A stretch of 32,512 nucleotides of DNA from Candidatus Hodarchaeota archaeon (GTDB lineage: Archaea > Asgardarchaeota > Heimdallarchaeia > Hodarchaeales > Hodarchaeaceae). The stretch covers positions 1 through 32,512 of the forward strand of contig JAEOTQ010000119.1 in assembly GCA_016839785.1 (NCBI GenBank), read 5' to 3'. This document shows, piece after piece, positions 2,457-30,061 of the stretch. Numbering within the stretch: position 1 is the first letter of the stretch; every line of letters begins with the position of its first letter. Position numbers and translations under genes: made by a program. The notes beneath the pieces are model-generated. The model saw only the letters and a program-made list of their open reading frames with translations. It was not told the DNA's origin and did not search any database.

Positions 2457-3071
2457 ATGAGTATCTTATCACGATTATTTGCACGGAGTCGAAAAACTCG
2501 AGTCACAATAGGAATCCTAGGAGCCCCTAATGCAGGAAAGACAACTCTTGCAAACCGTATTTCCAATGAATGTGGAAACGGTGAACCACTTGGTGTGGTA
2601 AGCCCAGTTCCTCATGAAACACGTGATTGCAAAGCTCTCGAACATTGTGTTATTAGCGATCAGAACGGATCACTAGATTTAACCATTGTCGACACTCCAG
2701 GTATTGCCACGTCAATAGACTATAGGGAATTCCAACAACATGGTTTAACAAGGCAAGATAGTATTCAACGAGCAAAAGAAGCAACTAGAGGAGTAATAAA
2801 AGCTATTCAAAGCTTAGATAAGATGGATGCGGCAATAGTAGTGGTTGACGCTGCTCGTGCACCATTTGATCAAATTAATTGGACTGTGATAGGAAATCTT
2901 GAAGCAAGACGGATCCCAATCATTGTTGCGGCTAATAAATCTGATTTAACTGAAGCCGATCCCGAACTTGTCAAAGAAACTTTCCAAAGTGATATTATTC
3001 CAATTTCAGCAAAAGATGGAACTGGAATGAATGAATTGTATGGAAGTATCCTATCTGTGTCAGGAATGTGA
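2457..3071 (+). CDS. arvA: Archaeal Era-like small GTPase, OapA/ArvA family
   Basis: G1 GAPNAGKT, G2 PHETR, G3 DTPG, G4 NKSD, G5 ISA; family-typical stretch RAKEATRGVIKAI and 'PFDQINWTVIGNLEARRIP'; SD AGGAGG upstream; followed by OapB- and OapC-like genes. Confidence 0.85.
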   Translation: MSILSRLFARSRKTRVTIGILGAPNAGKTTLANRISNECGNGEPLGVVSPVPHETRDCKALEHCVISDQNGSLDLTIVDTPGIATSIDYREFQQHGLTRQDSIQRAKEATRGVIKAIQSLDKMDAAIVVVDAARAPFDQINWTVIGNLEARRIPIIVAANKSDLTEADPELVKETFQSDIIPISAKDGTGMNELYGSILSVSGM

Positions 3072-3074
3072 GAG

Positions 3075-3392
3075 GTGCAAAAAGTGGACTTACGTATCAA
3101 TTTCGTGACGGAAAACACAACACGAAAAATGAACAGCACCCAGAAATGTGATTTTATAATTTCAAAACTTAAAACTGATTGTGTTTTGGTTTTTGAAGGC
3201 GGTCTTAATCCTGAAGAAGAAGCTGCTTTGATAGAGGAAGCTATGACTCAAATAGATCACCAAGAATTCTTGGGATATAAAATCCTTAATCCTACACCTC
3301 TCAGAATGAATGGACTGTTCAGTCGGAAGAACGTCAGAATGACGGTCATCGCTCCGTATAACTATGAACATCTCTCAATTGCGCTGGTCTAA
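3075..3392 (+). CDS. arvB: OapB/ArvB family protein (DUF2073)
   Basis: VLVFEGGLNPEEEAALIEEAMTQIDHQEFLG and MTVIAP resemble DUF2073; starts 3 nt after arvA. Confidence 0.8.
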   Translation: MQKVDLRINFVTENTTRKMNSTQKCDFIISKLKTDCVLVFEGGLNPEEEAALIEEAMTQIDHQEFLGYKILNPTPLRMNGLFSRKNVRMTVIAPYNYEHLSIALV

Positions 3393-3407
3393 TTTGACGG
3401 TGGATTT

Positions 3408-3755
3408 ATGGCATTAACTAGTGGAGAGGTCAATTTAAGCCGCTATCGTTGTGCAAAATGCGATCGTACTCCAGAAAAAGCGAATGAGCTCTTCACTGGA
3501 TGTTCATGTGGACATCGACTTTTTCGGTTACGTTTACAACCTTCAGCTAGTAAAAGAGCTTCTATTCCTCTTGATAAGACAACTTATTCAAAGGAAGATA
3601 TGGAGTTTCTTACAATTCGTGAGAGACAGATTGGTATTTATGATATAAATGTGGACAAATTACTCAAACGTGAACCTCAAAAGAAAAAATCTCCTGTTAT
3701 TGCTGGAAATAATGGAGTATATTCAATTCGTCTTGATTCCGTGTCAAAAGAATAG
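3408..3755 (+). CDS. arvC: OapC/ArvC family Zn-ribbon protein (DUF2072)
   Basis: CAKC...GCSCGHRLF Zn ribbon, then IRERQIGIYDINVDKLL and GVYSIRL; third gene of the operon. Confidence 0.8.
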   Translation: MALTSGEVNLSRYRCAKCDRTPEKANELFTGCSCGHRLFRLRLQPSASKRASIPLDKTTYSKEDMEFLTIRERQIGIYDINVDKLLKREPQKKKSPVIAGNNGVYSIRLDSVSKE

Positions 3756-4459: not shown

Positions 4460-4487
4460 AAAAAACCACTAAGACTATGTCTGAAAT

Positions 4488-4509
4488 TTTGAGTTAGGAG
4501 ATACTCAAA
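4488..4509. promoter_or_regulatory. Inverted repeat, candidate operator
   Basis: TTTGAGT-N8-ACTCAAA, 29-50 nt upstream of the coiled-coil/wHTH gene start. Confidence 0.3.
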
Positions 4510-4722
4510 GGTGAATGTTTTAGAGTTTTTGATATTTTTAAATTATCGGGTTTCAAACATAAAGTCATCCAATATTCCATTTTCTGAAAATCTAAGAAAA
4601 CTCTTAAAAAGATGAATTTTAACCCCTCCCTGTAAGAGTATAAAGGACGATTGAATCTTTGGGGGAAGCATGAAGTACTTCCGTGAATCATCAACCCTTA
4701 TTTCTATACAACTTAAATCTAG

Positions 4723-4944
4723 GTGATAATACTGATTATACAAAAAGATACAACTACAATAGAGAGTGATCTCCCTAAAGTTGATTCACAGGAATGTCAA
4801 TACTGTGGGAAACCTGCTATATGTAACTCATATACGTGCTATAAGAAAAAACATACAACGAGTAGCCATGATTATGATTGTGCTACATGTGAAGAACGTC
4901 TCTGTCAGCGTCATTGGCGACTCTACTTTAGGAAAAATGTTTGA
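4723..4944 (+). CDS. Small Cys/His-rich zinc-finger protein
   Basis: 7 Cys + 3 His in the pattern C-x2-C-x5-C-x4-C-x4-H-x4-H-x3-C-x2-C-x4-C-x2-H; exact start uncertain (AGGTGA overlaps the called GTG). Confidence 0.6.
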   Translation: MIILIIQKDTTTIESDLPKVDSQECQYCGKPAICNSYTCYKKKHTTSSHDYDCATCEERLCQRHWRLYFRKNV

Positions 4945-5087
4945 TAGAATGTGGCCAAATATCTCTTCCAAAAAAAACCGTAGAATTTTTAACCCTTGAG
5001 GTTTTGTAGTAGGCCAAAGCATTTATCTCAAGGAAAATTAATAATTTTTAAAGATAACAAGACGACCTTGTCGGAGTATCATCGTAG

Positions 5088-7826: not shown

Positions 7827-8780
7827 GTGCAAGAATATCCAAGAAAACGTATTCCTATTGTTATTGTCGGACTAGAGTTTGCAGGGAAAACCTCATTCGT
7901 ATTGCGTCTCCAAACTGGTGAATTTGTTAATACACTTCCGACCTCAGGACTTGATACAGAAATTCTCGAAATTCAAGGCACGTTTTTCCAGCTATTCGAT
8001 CTTGGAGGCCACGAGCGATTCCGACACATGTTTTGGAAAGAGTATGTAAAGCTTTCACAAGGAATTGTTTTCATGATCGATGCAAGCGATCTTGAAAAAC
8101 TCGATGATGCAGTAGAATGGCTGTGGAAATGTTTAGAATGGAATCTAGAAGCACCTCTAGTGATTCTAGCAAATAAAGCAGATTTAACTCACATAGAATT
8201 ACCAAAATTAATAGACAAGGTTAATCTTAGGAAATTACCACGCCAAAGTCCCACTCGATCTTTTCAAATCTTTGAAATTTCTGTGAAGACTGGAATGAAT
8301 ATAGATCGGGCATTAAATTGGTTCTCTCAAAAAATTGCAGTTTCTCTCTCAAAAAAATACATTAAACTTGAAGGAATCTATCTTTTTCTTCGTACAGGAG
8401 TACCTATCGTATCTCATCTATTTATGGATCAACCAGAAGAAGCGATGGATAATGACATTGTTCCTGGATTTCTGAACGCAATAAATGAATTTGCAAGTGG
8501 TGTGATGGGCGGCAGTGAGGGATTAAGTTCCTTGACTACAGAGAAGCATTCTATAGTAATGGTTAAACACGAAACACTCCTATGTGCTATTATAACTGAC
8601 CTCGAATCGGATCTGTCTGTTGCACGGATGGTAGCTGAATCAGTAGTTATGCATCTCGAAAAAGCTTATCCAAATCAACTCCTTAAGTATCAATCAAAAG
8701 GTAAATTCCTTTTTCCTGAGAATTTCCTTGTAGATTATCTACAGCAAGAGTTCAACGAGAATGTAGTGATTTCTACTTAA
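7827..8780 (+). CDS. Arf/Sar1-like small GTPase fused to C-terminal longin/roadblock-like domain
   Basis: G1 GLEFAGKT, G2 LPTSG, G3 FDLGGH, W in FWKEY, G4 ANKAD, G5 ISVK; C-terminal GVPIVSH...GFLNAINEFA...LLCAIITD pattern typical of Asgard longin/roadblock domains. Confidence 0.85.
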   Translation: MQEYPRKRIPIVIVGLEFAGKTSFVLRLQTGEFVNTLPTSGLDTEILEIQGTFFQLFDLGGHERFRHMFWKEYVKLSQGIVFMIDASDLEKLDDAVEWLWKCLEWNLEAPLVILANKADLTHIELPKLIDKVNLRKLPRQSPTRSFQIFEISVKTGMNIDRALNWFSQKIAVSLSKKYIKLEGIYLFLRTGVPIVSHLFMDQPEEAMDNDIVPGFLNAINEFASGVMGGSEGLSSLTTEKHSIVMVKHETLLCAIITDLESDLSVARMVAESVVMHLEKAYPNQLLKYQSKGKFLFPENFLVDYLQQEFNENVVIST

Positions 8781-10856: not shown

Positions 10857-11399
10857 TTATCTATTTGTTATTTTACTCCGCCTAGCATCGATATGAGCAA
10901 TAATCTGTAGGGCTAGTTGGGTAAAAGCTTCCTGGACATTTGTTCCGTTAAGAGCAGATGTTTCATAATAGGTGGCATTAAATTGTTCGGCTTTTTGAGC
11001 AGCTGTTTCACGTTTTACAGCTCTTTTTTCCTCTAAATCAACCTTATTGCCGAATAACATTAAAGGGACCCCACCAGCTTTATCAGTAAAATCTGTATGC
11101 CATTTATCAAGCTTGTTCAGGGTTTCGGGACGAGTTAAATCGTAAACCATAATTCCGCCATGAGAATGCAGGAAATACTGCGTTCGGATATTTCGGAAAG
11201 AATCCTGACCGCTGAGATCCCATATTTGCATCGTCATGCGTGTTTCGGCATCTAATTGAAGTCTCTTTAGTAAAAAATTACTACCGACCGTTGTCTTATA
11301 GTCATGGCTGAAAGCTTGCTCGACGAAGCGACGGATAACCGAAGTTTTACCGACACCTCCTTGGCCTAATAAAATGACCTTGCAGCTATACATAACCAT
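10857..11399 (-). CDS. Rab-like small GTPase
   Basis: KVILLGQGGVGKTS, YKTTVGSNF, QIWDLSGQDSFRNIRTQYF, VYDLT, GNKVDL, ETSA; SD GAGGT. Confidence 0.92.
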   Translation of the reverse strand: MVMYSCKVILLGQGGVGKTSVIRRFVEQAFSHDYKTTVGSNFLLKRLQLDAETRMTMQIWDLSGQDSFRNIRTQYFLHSHGGIMVYDLTRPETLNKLDKWHTDFTDKAGGVPLMLFGNKVDLEEKRAVKRETAAQKAEQFNATYYETSALNGTNVQEAFTQLALQIIAHIDARRSKITNR

Positions 11400-13873: not shown

Positions 13874-15613
13874 TTAATCTACTAGTAAGAGTTTTGTGAT
13901 AATCTTCCCACAGGCTTCACATTTTTCAGGGGTTTTATTCCGATCCTTAACCTCAAAAACATTATTGCAGCTAGTGCATTTCCATTGAGAGGGGATTATT
14001 AGTTCCGATTCAATCTGGAGAATGATAGCTGTGAACTTATTCAATAATTGATCAGCTTTGGAGGTCACACTACCTATATCACTTGCCTTACGTAATTCCT
14101 GGGGTGACTCTGCATCACGTAAAGGATCAATATCAAGGATGAGATTGTCAATTGTAGCTTGGATTTCGGCATAGTTTGAAAGTGCTTCGATAACATTTCG
14201 TTCGGTAATCCAAGCAATAACTTCAAGAATATGATCCATTAACTCATAGGTATCAGAAATGGCCGCTTCCTTAGATAAACTGTCAGGAAGCTTTTGAATT
14301 GTGAGGGAGAGTTGCTCAAAGAGGGGTTTCAAGTCTTTTTGGAGCTTTAATTGGGTATATAGACGGAATAGTGTTAGATAATGTGAAAATTGCTTATCTG
14401 GATCGGCCTTTGACATGATTGCGGTCGTTATTTCTCGAATTTGATTTACAGGACAGTCATGTGGATGGGTTGTTTCCCCAACTGGAGTTTTCCACCTGGA
14501 TAAAATGACAATCTGTTTCCCTCGAGTATAATCAAGATCCACATATTCTTGAGCTTTATGTGTCAAACATTCAAAATAAGTATAGTTGGACTTGTCATCA
14601 TCGGCAACAAGAAGTGTGGTATCTGCTTGACAATAGTTACACTGATCAATTGACTCTTCCTCCGTTCTATTAGTTTTCCCACACGCAATACAATAAATAT
14701 AAGTATATTCCGTGGTGAACTTACCGAATGTTCCTGTCCCAGATACTCCAGATTCATCTGCAGATCGACGCATCCGCGCAAAGAGGGAGTCGTCATCATC
14801 CAACATGGCAGTTAACGAGGAACCAAGACCTTCCGCTGCTTCCGACCGAGCTTTTTCTTCCTCTTTCTTCCTCAAATACTCCTCCCGATCCTCAGGTGAC
14901 ATCTTTTCGATCATTTTCAGCTCTTTGACACGATTTTGGATTCTGCCTCTATCTACAGGTGTCAAAGCCTCTAAAAAGTCAGGGGGAAGAGCAGTAATTT
15001 CGTCCATACTCATTTCCTCAAAATCAGTACGTAATGCTGAAATTGGGCCAGCTGGAACGGTGCTGGTAGCCAACATCGCCCCTCCGGGAGGAGGTGGAGG
15101 AGGCGGAGCACCTCCAACAATAGGACGAGGTGGGGGGGGTGCTGAACTCGATTGAATTTGGACAGCTTGGAGATTTCTTTGAATAGATGCGACGATTCTA
15201 CGTTCTAATTCATCTAAAAATCCTGCAGTTTGTTCAAACTTAACTTTTTGATCGGCACGAAGTTTCTCTTGTTTATCTAACGTTTTTCGAACTTCTGTTA
15301 ATAAGTGTTCAGTCATAGCATCTAAACGGGGGAACATATATTGGAGAACATCATACATGATCCACTGCTCAACCTCACCAAATTTCTTGAACGGCTCTGG
15401 GGTTAATGCTCGGAGTGCAGGATAAATTTCGTTGTTATCCATGTTTCGTTGAGCCCATGACCAGATAGTCGATTTTTTCTTACGGTTTCCAAGTAATTCA
15501 TCAGCAATTTGTTCAAAAGTTTGATTATCTAATCTACGCTGAATTAGTTCTTTTTTTCGATCTTCCTTGCTCAAAGAGTACCATATGGCATCAGAAGTAG
15601 TCATACTGGTCAT
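13874..15613 (-). CDS. Multidomain protein: N-terminal HTH-like, coiled coil, polyproline tract, two Zn ribbons, helical region
   Basis: TFEQIADELLG...STIWSW; APPPPRPIVGGAPPPPPPPGG; CIAC...CNYC and WKCTSC...CEACG. Confidence 0.75.
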   Translation of the reverse strand: MTSMTTSDAIWYSLSKEDRKKELIQRRLDNQTFEQIADELLGNRKKKSTIWSWAQRNMDNNEIYPALRALTPEPFKKFGEVEQWIMYDVLQYMFPRLDAMTEHLLTEVRKTLDKQEKLRADQKVKFEQTAGFLDELERRIVASIQRNLQAVQIQSSSAPPPPRPIVGGAPPPPPPPGGAMLATSTVPAGPISALRTDFEEMSMDEITALPPDFLEALTPVDRGRIQNRVKELKMIEKMSPEDREEYLRKKEEEKARSEAAEGLGSSLTAMLDDDDSLFARMRRSADESGVSGTGTFGKFTTEYTYIYCIACGKTNRTEEESIDQCNYCQADTTLLVADDDKSNYTYFECLTHKAQEYVDLDYTRGKQIVILSRWKTPVGETTHPHDCPVNQIREITTAIMSKADPDKQFSHYLTLFRLYTQLKLQKDLKPLFEQLSLTIQKLPDSLSKEAAISDTYELMDHILEVIAWITERNVIEALSNYAEIQATIDNLILDIDPLRDAESPQELRKASDIGSVTSKADQLLNKFTAIILQIESELIIPSQWKCTSCNNVFEVKDRNKTPEKCEACGKIITKLLLVD

Positions 15614-15835
15614 TTCGCTATGTTTTTTTCGAAGAGTCTCAGTACGGCCAATATACTTTGTTCATATAAACGTATACATTTTGTTCATATGGTAAGATAT
15701 CAAAATGAGTGTCAAATTTTCATCTTGTCGCAATTAAGTGATTTTTTAGCTTTGAGAAAAAAGATTGAAAGAAAGAAATTTCGAAAAATCCCCTATTTTT
15801 CATTTATCTGATATTTTAATTTTCCAGTGATATTA

Positions 15836-28864: not shown

Positions 28865-29263
28865 TCAGTCAATTATTCTAATACCAGTTTTCTCGAAGTG
28901 AGAACGATTTCTTGTTACTAAAGGGAGATCTTTCTCCAATGCAACACTTGCTATTAGTGTATCCAATACCCCTATTGGAGTTCCTTTTTTTCTGAGATCG
29001 TTTATAAGAAAGCCAAATCTGTTGGCAATTGCTTGAGTAAACGGGATTATGGTAAAAAATTGTATAAGCTCTTCTGCTTGTTTAAGATTAAACTCAACTC
29101 TTGAAGATTTATACACACCTTGATATAACTCCCAAAGAGTCACATGAGTGATAAATAATTCATTAGGTTGTTCTAGTAAACTTTTTAGTTGTTTAATTGT
29201 TTCTTTGTCATTTCTTAGAATTTTTATAAGATAATCAGTATCAAAAATCATTGCTGCCACCAA
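28865..29263 (-). CDS. vapC: VapC PIN-domain toxin
   Basis: IFDTD, WELYQG, DTLIAS, LVTRNRSHF; real start probably the MIFDT methionine. Confidence 0.92.
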   Translation of the reverse strand: MVAAMIFDTDYLIKILRNDKETIKQLKSLLEQPNELFITHVTLWELYQGVYKSSRVEFNLKQAEELIQFFTIIPFTQAIANRFGFLINDLRKKGTPIGVLDTLIASVALEKDLPLVTRNRSHFEKTGIRIID

Positions 29264-29267
29264 AAAT

Positions 29268-29492
29268 CTAAAATCTAAGATTTATATTCATCCTGTCATC
29301 AAATACTGATTCAACTGAATCAGCTAGGTCTGATAAATCTTTTTGGCTTGATAACCATGCAATTAGATCTTCTTTCTTCTTTTTACTAGTTAGAATTCTC
29401 TTAATTACTTCGGTAAAAGACTCATTCTCCTTTTTGTTTTCTTTTAATAAATTATAAGCCTCTTCAGAAATTGTAATTGTTTTGTGTGCCAT
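29268..29492 (-). CDS. vapB: VapB antitoxin (UPF0330, RHH-like)
   Basis: MAHKTITISEEAYNLLKENKKENESFTEVIKRI; directly upstream of vapC. Confidence 0.9.
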   Translation of the reverse strand: MAHKTITISEEAYNLLKENKKENESFTEVIKRILTSKKKKEDLIAWLSSQKDLSDLADSVESVFDDRMNINLRF

Positions 29493-29507
29493 GGTTCTAA
29501 TATGATT

Positions 29508-29517
29508 ATACATGTAT
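29508..29517. promoter_or_regulatory. Palindrome, probable VapB operator
   Basis: Perfect palindrome ATACATGTAT 16-25 nt upstream of the vapB ATG, followed by a related ATGTGTAT. Confidence 0.45.
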
Positions 29518-30061
29518 TTATGTGTATTGATAGACTCTATCCACCCAATCTCTGTCCTAAAAAAAATATTTGAATATTTTAAGAAAAAAGGGCATTTTTA
29601 GGGTTCGGGGCATGTTTGACAGTATATATCTGAATCATCTCAGCTGTGTATGAAAATGTCGCCAAACTCAAATTCAATAATGGCTTGAAAAAATATATAT
29701 TCACAATTTATGATTTTAATTATATAACAGAATCGATATTTATGTCTATTTTTTCTAAAAGCGGCATGTAACATAATTAAATATTATCAATAGTTAAATA
29801 TATTATATTATGCTATATTTGATAGTTTCTTGCGTCATTATTTTAAATATAAAAGGAGAATATATTTTATTCACAATTGCATTTGTTTTAAATTCATACT
29901 CTGCGAATAAAAACAAATTTTGCCATTTAATGACAAAAGAAGGTAGGAAAATTGAAATAAAAATACGAAATATGATCAAAAGGTATATAAATGGATTTAA
30001 ATCTAGTATAATTAGGAAATATTCCTACAAAGTAAGATAAAATATAAAAGGTGAATAAAAA

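Follow-up and report, generated by a model that had tools for sequence, protein, structure and literature searches.

The window analyzed here is a 32,512-nucleotide (nt) stretch of Candidatus Hodarchaeota archaeon DNA (contig JAEOTQ010000119.1), and its minus strand carries, at 13874..15613, an uninterrupted open reading frame (ORF) of 579 amino acids (aa) plus stop, the product of which we call P0001. The original prediction, made from the letters alone, described this product as a helix-turn-helix (HTH), coiled-coil, polyproline and zinc (Zn)-ribbon protein that might join DNA to the actin cytoskeleton as a nucleation-factor-like adaptor. Its observations were sound: every motif that it named is present in the translated ORF where it had been placed, namely the proline-rich stretch SSAPPPPRPIVGGAPPPPPPPGGA at residues 156-179 (nt 15077-15148, earlier given as ~15080-15143), RIQNRVKELKMI at residues 224-235, SLFARMRRSA at residues 276-285, a first CxxC..CxxC formed by C308/C311/C325/C328, and a terminal CxxC..CxxC formed by C546/C549/C565/C568. 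The features of the locus are listed below with the evidence for each, confidence in the AlphaFold2 models being given as predicted local distance difference test (pLDDT) scores; the last line lies outside the window, in the same genome (G000).

15651..15690, minus strand: operator-like element, 38-77 nt upstream of the start codon
15425..15592, minus strand: N-terminal HTH-like domain, residues 8-63 (AlphaFold2 helices, alignment, and sub-threshold HTH matches in relatives)
15152..15376, minus strand: helical region, residues 80-154, with one 60-residue helix at 95-154 (AlphaFold2, pLDDT 46-71)
15077..15148, minus strand: proline-rich segment, residues 156-179, with P4 at 159-162 and P7 at 170-176 (nt 15086-15106)
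14834..15034, minus strand: conserved acidic/helical block, residues 194-260, LRTDFEEMSMEEITALPPDFLEALTP.DR.R.Q.RVKELK.IEKMSPEERE.YL (alignment and model)
14714..14833, minus strand: most conserved segment, residues 261-300, EGLGSSLTAMLDD.DSLFARMRR.AD.S.VSGTGTFGKF (alignment)
14414..14710, minus strand: first Zn ribbon plus beta-rich subdomain, residues 302-400, with invariant C349 and C387 (alignment and domain model)
13994..14413, minus strand: up-down helical bundle, residues 401-540 (AlphaFold2, pLDDT 78-92)
13877..13993, minus strand: C-terminal Zn ribbon, residues 541-579 (sub-threshold HypA-type and Zn_ribbon_8 Pfam matches, alignment, and AlphaFold2)
G000:C206 (L084 6390-8100; L002 1483-3196): two-gene unit made up of the paralog of P0001 and the gene that precedes it

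The full-length AlphaFold2 model, built from an alignment of 27 of the 57 homologs described below (alignment A1), had a mean pLDDT of 69.6 and a predicted template modeling (pTM) score of 0.39. It placed short, confident helices at residues 10-63 (pLDDT about 86-91), disorder at 155-195, helices at 203-271, a low-confidence stretch at 261-301, the beta/Zn-ribbon part at 302-394, a confident helical bundle at 405-538 and, last, the terminal ribbon. A separate model of residues 190-400 agreed with the full model, the helices of the acidic/helical block reaching pLDDT values of 82-90.

Scans of P0001 against Pfam and NCBIfam returned no family over its curated cut-off, and the remaining matches were generic Zn-ribbon or weak helical ones (the Pfam scan listed 18 families at E ≤ 10; HMMER filters drop most matches above about 0.1). 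The best Pfam match, DUF7130 (PF23458), reached 26.7 bits against a cut-off of 35 (E 5.3e-6), with residues 273-335 aligned to profile positions 21-83. Many homologs bear a precomputed DUF7130 label, but P0001 itself falls below the cut-off, and across 400 Asgard genomes (21 of 400 over the cut-off), most matches cover the Zn-ribbon part only and are sub-threshold; a literature search returned no paper on DUF7130. A profile search of the PDB with P0001 gave nothing below E 0.16, Foldseek matched the full model to no PDB entry at E ≤ 0.001, and the BFVD viral fold library gave no significant match (best E 0.016). For the domain model of residues 190-400, the best VIA Z was 4.7 and the best Foldseek E was 0.079, with MCM N-terminal and rubredoxin-like ribbons. 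VIA-align of the full model matched the bundle alone (hemerythrin DcrH, Z 10.2; vinculin tail, 8.9-9.7; Rsd, 9.2; alpha-catenin actin-binding domain, 8.8); since all of these lie below the bar for helical bundles, about Z 13, the actin-binding bundles in the list are not evidence. The nearest clusters in the protein atlas were viral, at an uninformative score of 0.76-0.80, and PHROGs contained no match for P0001 or its paralog.

Two automatic names carried by some homologs were considered. Rubrerythrin and hemerythrin are four-helix bundles with conserved di-iron His/Glu ligands; the invariant or near-invariant set of residues 401-540 holds one His (H411) and one invariant Glu (E535), with no paired ExxH or H..HxxxE, and we rejected the name rubrerythrin because the bundle is without conserved di-iron ligands and has no Pfam match. 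For Nob1, no PIN or Nob1 family appeared in the Pfam and NCBIfam scans, and the ribbon alone could explain the name. Profile, Pfam, NCBIfam and fold searches thus gave no family, so that the worry attached to the original prediction, that the whole protein might belong to a known unrelated one, is not borne out. The family is uncharacterized, and our literature searches found no description of it.

Homologs, proline run and conserved motif

Among 5.8 billion clustered proteins, 57 homologs were found at E ≤ 0.001, nearly all of them 560-600 aa long and 48-100% identical; their source labels are hypothetical proteins of Hodarchaeales, Heimdallarchaeota or "Promethearchaeota" metagenome-assembled genomes, with a few automatic names (rubrerythrin, Nob1). 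Alignment A1, used as a profile over 400 genomes of the phylum, found the gene in every one of the 21 other genomes in the same GTDB genus, in one of the two from the sister family, and in none of the remaining 376 Asgard genomes sampled. Of the 22 genomes of the genus, 19 also gave a shorter second match (residues about 105-330). The one in the own genome, which is 84.5% complete, is a paralog on contig C206 that is 360 aa long and about 30% identical, and is built of an N-terminal Zn ribbon, a helix, a P7, the core module described next and a ribbon. An exhaustive HMMER search of 1.84 billion representatives gave 33 proteins at E ≤ 0.001, which make up three groups: the full-length proteins, the paralog with an N-terminal Zn ribbon replacing the HTH, and short HTH-bearing forms (P0073, P0079 and P0080, two of which are labeled "Promethearchaeota archaeon"). 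No relatives were found on IMG/VR viral contigs (A1 query), on genome contigs (P0080) or on metagenome contigs (P0073 and P0079).

Common to the three groups is an ordered module, which consists of a long helix, 5-9 prolines followed by G or S, and an F/W-acidic helix (.[FW]..MSLEEI..LP..LE.L), and continues with R.KEL..IEKMS.EEREEYL, a short LF.KM+..A[DE] motif, G.GTFG and a CxxC..CxxC ribbon. The paralog is without an HTH and lies, in 7 of 7 loci, 3-20 nt behind a gene of 204-247 aa on the same strand. The products of that preceding gene match MarR_2 in 4 of 7 members (best E 0.0045) and also TrmB, IclR and HTH_24, weakly and consistently, along with PDB entries 2d1h (E 0.027) and 1ku9 (E 0.085); from these profile matches, we regard it as a probable winged-helix gene. 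Palindromes of the TAGAC-WW-GTCTA type are found upstream of the two-gene unit in 5 of the 7 loci. With either an HTH fused to it or a probable winged-helix gene adjacent to it, the module is joined to a putative DNA-binding part in every version.

The polyproline run of this module is conserved. Among 51 homologs of at least 500 aa, the longest run is 4 prolines in 2, 5 in 9, 6 in 14, 7 in 21 and 8 in 5, so that 49 of the 51 have at least 5. The original prediction was to fall if orthologs did not keep the tract; it is kept in the orthologs and in the ~30%-identity paralog. In the own genome, runs of at least 6 prolines occur in 2 of 3,605 crude ORFs, namely P0001 and its paralog, against about 0.005 expected from composition (proline frequency 0.040, 36% G+C), and the seven proline codons of P7 include all four CCN codons. 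The run is far beyond chance.

Two other proline-rich proteins are encoded in the same genome and are weaker candidate ligands for a proline reader. One (G000:C222:3723-5396) spans the membrane several times and has a Pro-rich cytoplasmic tail that includes a P5; the other (G000:C15:12152-13702) is 517 aa long, has an acidic middle rich in PxP and is anchored in the membrane at its C terminus.

Conservation, measured as majority identity per 20-aa bin, peaks at residues 261-300 (0.90-0.92); the preceding block, residues 194-260, which is common to the paralogs, has values of 0.79-0.84. The same residues 261-300 have the lowest pLDDT (full model, 35-48; domain model, 41-58). Where conservation is strong and no fold is predicted, one usually has a peptide that becomes ordered on binding a partner, and with the highest conservation and the lowest pLDDT of the protein, this segment is a candidate partner-docking motif. 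Within it lies a conserved amphipathic-plus-basic motif (residues 262-285), the basic part of which is LFKKM or LKKF in paralogs. We set aside a MIM1-like (Vps4 MIT-binding) reading of LQ.RVKELK, as the motif is internal and not C-terminal.

HTH-like head and upstream element

The N-terminal part of the family follows the pattern RR..N.SF.QIA..LLG...K.STIWSWA.RN, with R27, F33, L40, K47, T49, W51, W53, A54, R56 and N57 invariant. In the relatives P0080, P0079 and P0083, HTH_38 (PF13936, cut-off 27 bits) scores a sub-threshold 17.5-19.1 bits, and the relative P0073 has a transposase-HTH PHROG match. Our HTH assignment follows from the confident helical model, the invariant pattern and these sub-threshold HTH_38 and transposase-HTH matches in four relatives. 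The HTH and the coiled coil of the original prediction stand as structural readings, though not as an HTH family over a curated cut-off in P0001 itself.

Upstream of the gene, the window contains two 17-nt direct repeats at 15651-15690, which read ATATGAACAAAATGTATACGTTTATATGAACAAAGTATAT on the gene strand. In all 11 other genomes compared, a composite palindrome, ATGAAC-N10-11-GTTCAT-ATGAAC-GTTCAT, can be recognized ahead of the gene (the canonical element is also written ATGAAC-N11-GTTCATATGAACGTTCAT), and 6 of them have the 12-mer ATGAACGTTCAT exactly. The window and the two closest relatives examined (G061 and G063) have a variant form, ATGAAC-N11-GTTTAT-ATGAAC-AAT/AAA-GT(T/A)TAT; canonical or variant, the element is found upstream in all 14 genomes examined. 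Where a search for TGAACAA matched (the window and 4 other genomes), the element begins 47-106 nt before the start codon. The intergenic DNA that surrounds it does not align, and the neighboring genes differ between loci.

A gene-specific inverted repeat beside the gene of an HTH protein is the classic picture of self-regulation, and this conserved operator-like element strengthens the link to DNA that had been proposed for P0001. In the mechanism that we envisage, the N-terminal HTH would bind DNA, with the palindromic ATGAAC/GTTCAT element as its likeliest target, and the protein would hence probably regulate itself. Two chains are probably held together by the long helix that follows the HTH, an arrangement that would fit the two-fold symmetric half-sites.

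Exact 12-mers were also seen at two other places (in G066 and G074), and both look like chance occurrences, one being in a TetR-type divergent promoter and the other within an ORF. A second intergenic operator-like site lies in the own genome at G000:C23:14288-14308, and its flank, TCTTACCATATGAAC, is common with that of the window copy (ATATGAACGCAGTTCACATGTTCACAT); no ORF of at least 80 aa starts within 300 nt of this site.

Actin, profilin and the readings of P0001

The premise that Asgard archaea encode actin and profilin holds in the own genome, which has one actin gene (383 aa), on another contig than the P0001 gene, and a profilin gene (122 aa; G000:C90:21994-22359; L023 1507-1872). This profilin is related to the polyproline-binding Heimdall LC3 profilin (PDB 6yrr, E 4.4e-36) and scores only E 0.16 in Pfam. 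No second actin-family gene was found in the 84.5% complete genome, so that no Arp2/3 is evident. Of the 22 genomes of the genus, 20 give a profilin match and 19 an actin match. In an alignment with 6yrr, the residues W30 and F121 of the own profilin, both invariant in 16 orthologs, fall on W53 and F147; PMC8410842 reports that W53 and F147 of LC3 profilin correspond to the human polyproline-contact residues. In the same paper, LC3 profilin bound a VASP polyproline peptide with a dissociation constant (KD) of 3.3 mM as the full protein and 0.3 mM without its N-terminal extension. The first residue of the own profilin corresponds to M24 of 6yrr, a stop codon lies two codons upstream of it, and the N-terminal extension discussed in PMC8410842 is not conserved in the profilin of this genus; because of this start, the own profilin is more like the truncated form, which binds better.

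The case for a link between the two is circumstantial: we saw no known proline reader but profilin in the own genome, and long proline runs occur there only in the P0001 family. Searches of this genome gave no SH3_1, WW or GYF match at E ≤ 0.1, and the sole WH1 match (E 0.057) contains two stop codons; since no positive control accompanied these Pfam searches, and Pfam all but overlooked the real profilin, the absence of other readers is weak evidence. The available text of the preprint 10.1101/2025.11.30.690169 names only gelsolins and profilins as the main known Asgard actin regulators.

We read P0001, at a probability of roughly 40%, as a lineage-specific, DNA-anchored and probably self-regulated scaffold whose proline rod and disordered motif would recruit partners. 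The rigid polyproline rod and the very conserved disordered motif would serve as docking sites for other proteins, and the C-terminal Zn-ribbon/helical-bundle/Zn-ribbon unit may serve for additional interactions or as a sensor. For the reader of the rod, the foremost candidate is the cell's profilin, possibly carrying actin; the kept contact residues and the genome-unique run are consistent with such binding, which we nevertheless regard as doubtful.

Several points weigh against this scaffold and its profilin link. The family is restricted to one small clade, whereas actin and profilin are found Asgard-wide, and the gene has no conserved cytoskeletal neighbor in the 7 loci compared. Eukaryotic profilin recruiters usually carry several proline runs, and P0001 has one long and one short, a P7 and a P4 that are 8 residues apart; the distant relatives P0083 and P0086 are without a PPP run. 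On the DNA side, the Pfam scan of P0001 gave no HTH_38 match and no HTH family over its cut-off, and another regulator could use the upstream element. The exact 12-mer was no commoner than its reversed control in 5 genomes, and half-site clusters in the own genome (27 observed, 18-29 in shuffles) were not enriched, so that no regulon is visible. Divergent proline readers could have been missed, and the affinities of an archaeal profilin for polyproline are weak (0.3-3.3 mM; PMC8410842).

Nearly as likely as the DNA-anchored scaffold, in our ranking, is a plain transcription regulator, in which DNA or the basal transcription machinery is the target of the HTH and Zn ribbons, the polyproline is a stiff spacer between the dimerizing helix and the effector half, the motif at 261-300 packs against the protein's own ribbon domain or else makes contact with RNA polymerase, TBP or TFB, and there is no link to profilin or actin. 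The conserved palindromic element upstream of the gene fits such a protein, as do the HTH-like heads of all HTH-bearing relatives, the probable winged-helix partner beside the paralog, the palindromes (TAGAC-WW-GTCTA) of the paralog operon, the lack of cytoskeletal neighbors and the proline-free P0083 and P0086. With archaeal HTH/Zn-ribbon regulators that have self-regulatory palindromic operators, P0001 shares an HTH head, a probable dimer and inverted-repeat half-sites directly upstream of its gene, but no counterpart has been described for its polyproline rod, its ultra-conserved disordered motif or its ribbon-bundle-ribbon tail, and it matches no curated family. Spacers, moreover, usually drift in length and composition, whereas paralogs of ~30% identity still have an uninterrupted proline run with G or S after it, a run that is unique in a 36% G+C genome; nor is there a visible regulon for such a regulator to control.

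An actin assembly factor of the formin, Ena/VASP or WASP type, in which the polyproline tract would recruit profilin-actin, SLTAML..SLFARMRR would pass actin on to a filament end as a WH2- or G-actin-site-like element and the coiled coil would give multivalency, seems to us quite unlikely. The series of a putatively oligomerizing helix, GAPPPPPPPGG and the amphipathic-plus-basic motif does resemble the order of a proline-rich motif and then WH2, the basic motif of the paralogs (LFKKM or LKKF) points the same way, and actin and profilin are encoded in the own genome and in 19/22 and 20/22 genomes of the genus. P0001, however, has no WH2, FH2 or WH1 match at E ≤ 10; SLFARMRRSADE is helical in the AlphaFold2 model of residues 190-400, whereas the LKKV part of WH2 is extended; there is one actin-family gene and no evident Arp2/3; the HTH and operator point to DNA; and the vinculin-tail and alpha-catenin-like bundle matches lie below the bar. 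Each of the three eukaryotic types shares something with P0001 and departs from it elsewhere. Ena/VASP proteins share with it a G/A-flanked run of at least 5 prolines beside an oligomerizing helix (putative in P0001), followed by a short amphipathic/basic motif, but P0001 has no EVH1/WH1 domain in Pfam, its helix is N-terminal and not C-terminal of the tract, it has one main proline run, and it bears an HTH and two Zn ribbons; at the place of the Ena/VASP-type sites after the tract, there is no WH2 (PF02205) at E ≤ 10, and the conserved motif at 262-285 is found. An FH1-type polyproline tract could recruit profilin-actin as in formins, but P0001 has no FH2 (PF02181) at E ≤ 10, in a scan that a very weak likeness could escape, and a single tract with one P7 and one P4 run; an FMNL1 chain appeared at E 0.26 in the PDB profile search. 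From WASP/WAVE proteins, it differs in having no WH2 match, and no Arp2 or Arp3 was found in the genome, itself 84.5% complete. The clade does have, as in the Ena/VASP case, a polyproline-reading profilin (PMC8410842). Nothing indicates the nucleation-factor activity that had been proposed: FH2, WH2 and WH1/EVH1 are missing at E ≤ 10, there are no cytoskeletal neighbors, and the family occupies one clade.

A bolder form of the DNA-anchored scaffold, which we consider improbable, would make P0001 the first endogenous polyproline ligand of an archaeal profilin, a dimeric adaptor that sits on palindromic DNA and captures profilin-actin while its disordered motif engages actin or a filament end. 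Precedents for joining a DNA-binding or HTH head to a part that engages actin-family filaments are ParR, the adaptor of ParM segregation, and RodZ, an HTH protein that binds MreB; as with P0001, there is an HTH head, and palindromic or repeated sites adjoin the gene. We found, however, no sequence or fold relation to these proteins and no adjacent actin-like gene, the actin being on another contig, and those systems are without a polyproline or profilin step. If this form were true, DNA (its segregation, its positioning or the shape of the nucleoid) would be coupled to the Asgard actin cytoskeleton, and P0001 would be a prokaryotic forerunner of FH1/VASP-style actin delivery with ParR-like logic.

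Least probable of all is a domesticated mobile-element regulator with an IS30/HTH_38 transposase-type head that controls, or derives from, a mobile element or virus: the sub-threshold HTH_38 scores of P0079, P0080 and P0083, the transposase PHROG match of P0073 and the viral atlas clusters (score only 0.76-0.80) would suit it, but the gene is single-copy, is present in every genome of the genus and lies in chromosomal, non-mobile contexts in G066, G064 and G065, and P0001 has no IMG/VR relatives, no PHROG match, no significant BFVD fold match and, in the Pfam scan, no transposase catalytic domain.

The existence of natural polyproline partners for Asgard profilins has been in question since these profilins were first characterized. 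Earlier work used a human VASP peptide, and the available text of PMC8410842 points only to scattered proline motifs in Asgard genomes; for the motif PPAPRPLP, it cites the LC3 protein GenBank OLS24758. That exact motif is present in none of the homologs that we fetched (P0006 and P0007 have PPIPPRPLP), a literature search found OLS24758 mentioned in no paper besides PMC8410842, and no paper turned up that treats Hodarchaeales together with proline-rich proteins. In the own genome, the candidates for a polyproline ligand come down to two proteins of one kin, and the contact residues reported for profilin are still present. P0001 and its upstream element also provide a testable pair of candidate regulator and candidate operator in a lineage close to eukaryotes, which has almost no transcription factor with a known site. 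If the profilin link fails, what remains is an ordinary uncharacterized, clade-specific regulator.

Neighboring genes and other features of the window

An AsnRS gene, a gene for a 245-280 aa protein of no assigned function and a Ras-type GTPase gene form the neighborhood of the P0001 gene in 3 of the 7 loci compared, and unrelated genes surround it in the other 4; its neighbors are thus either housekeeping genes or variable ones. The window itself encodes two eukaryote-like small GTPases, at 7827-8780 and 10857-11399, one of Arf type with a C-terminal extension of about 140 aa and the other of Ras/Rab type. At 2457-3755, a GTPase gene is followed by genes for OapB and OapC (origin-associated protein), which suggests a nearby replication origin. 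The 630-nt gap at 4460-5087 contains weak repeats only. Between a PIN-domain gene and an Hsp20-DnaJ-ClpB-like cluster, the intergenic region at 29264-30061 is AT rich and has several inverted repeats; the G+C content of 29001-30000 is 0.267.

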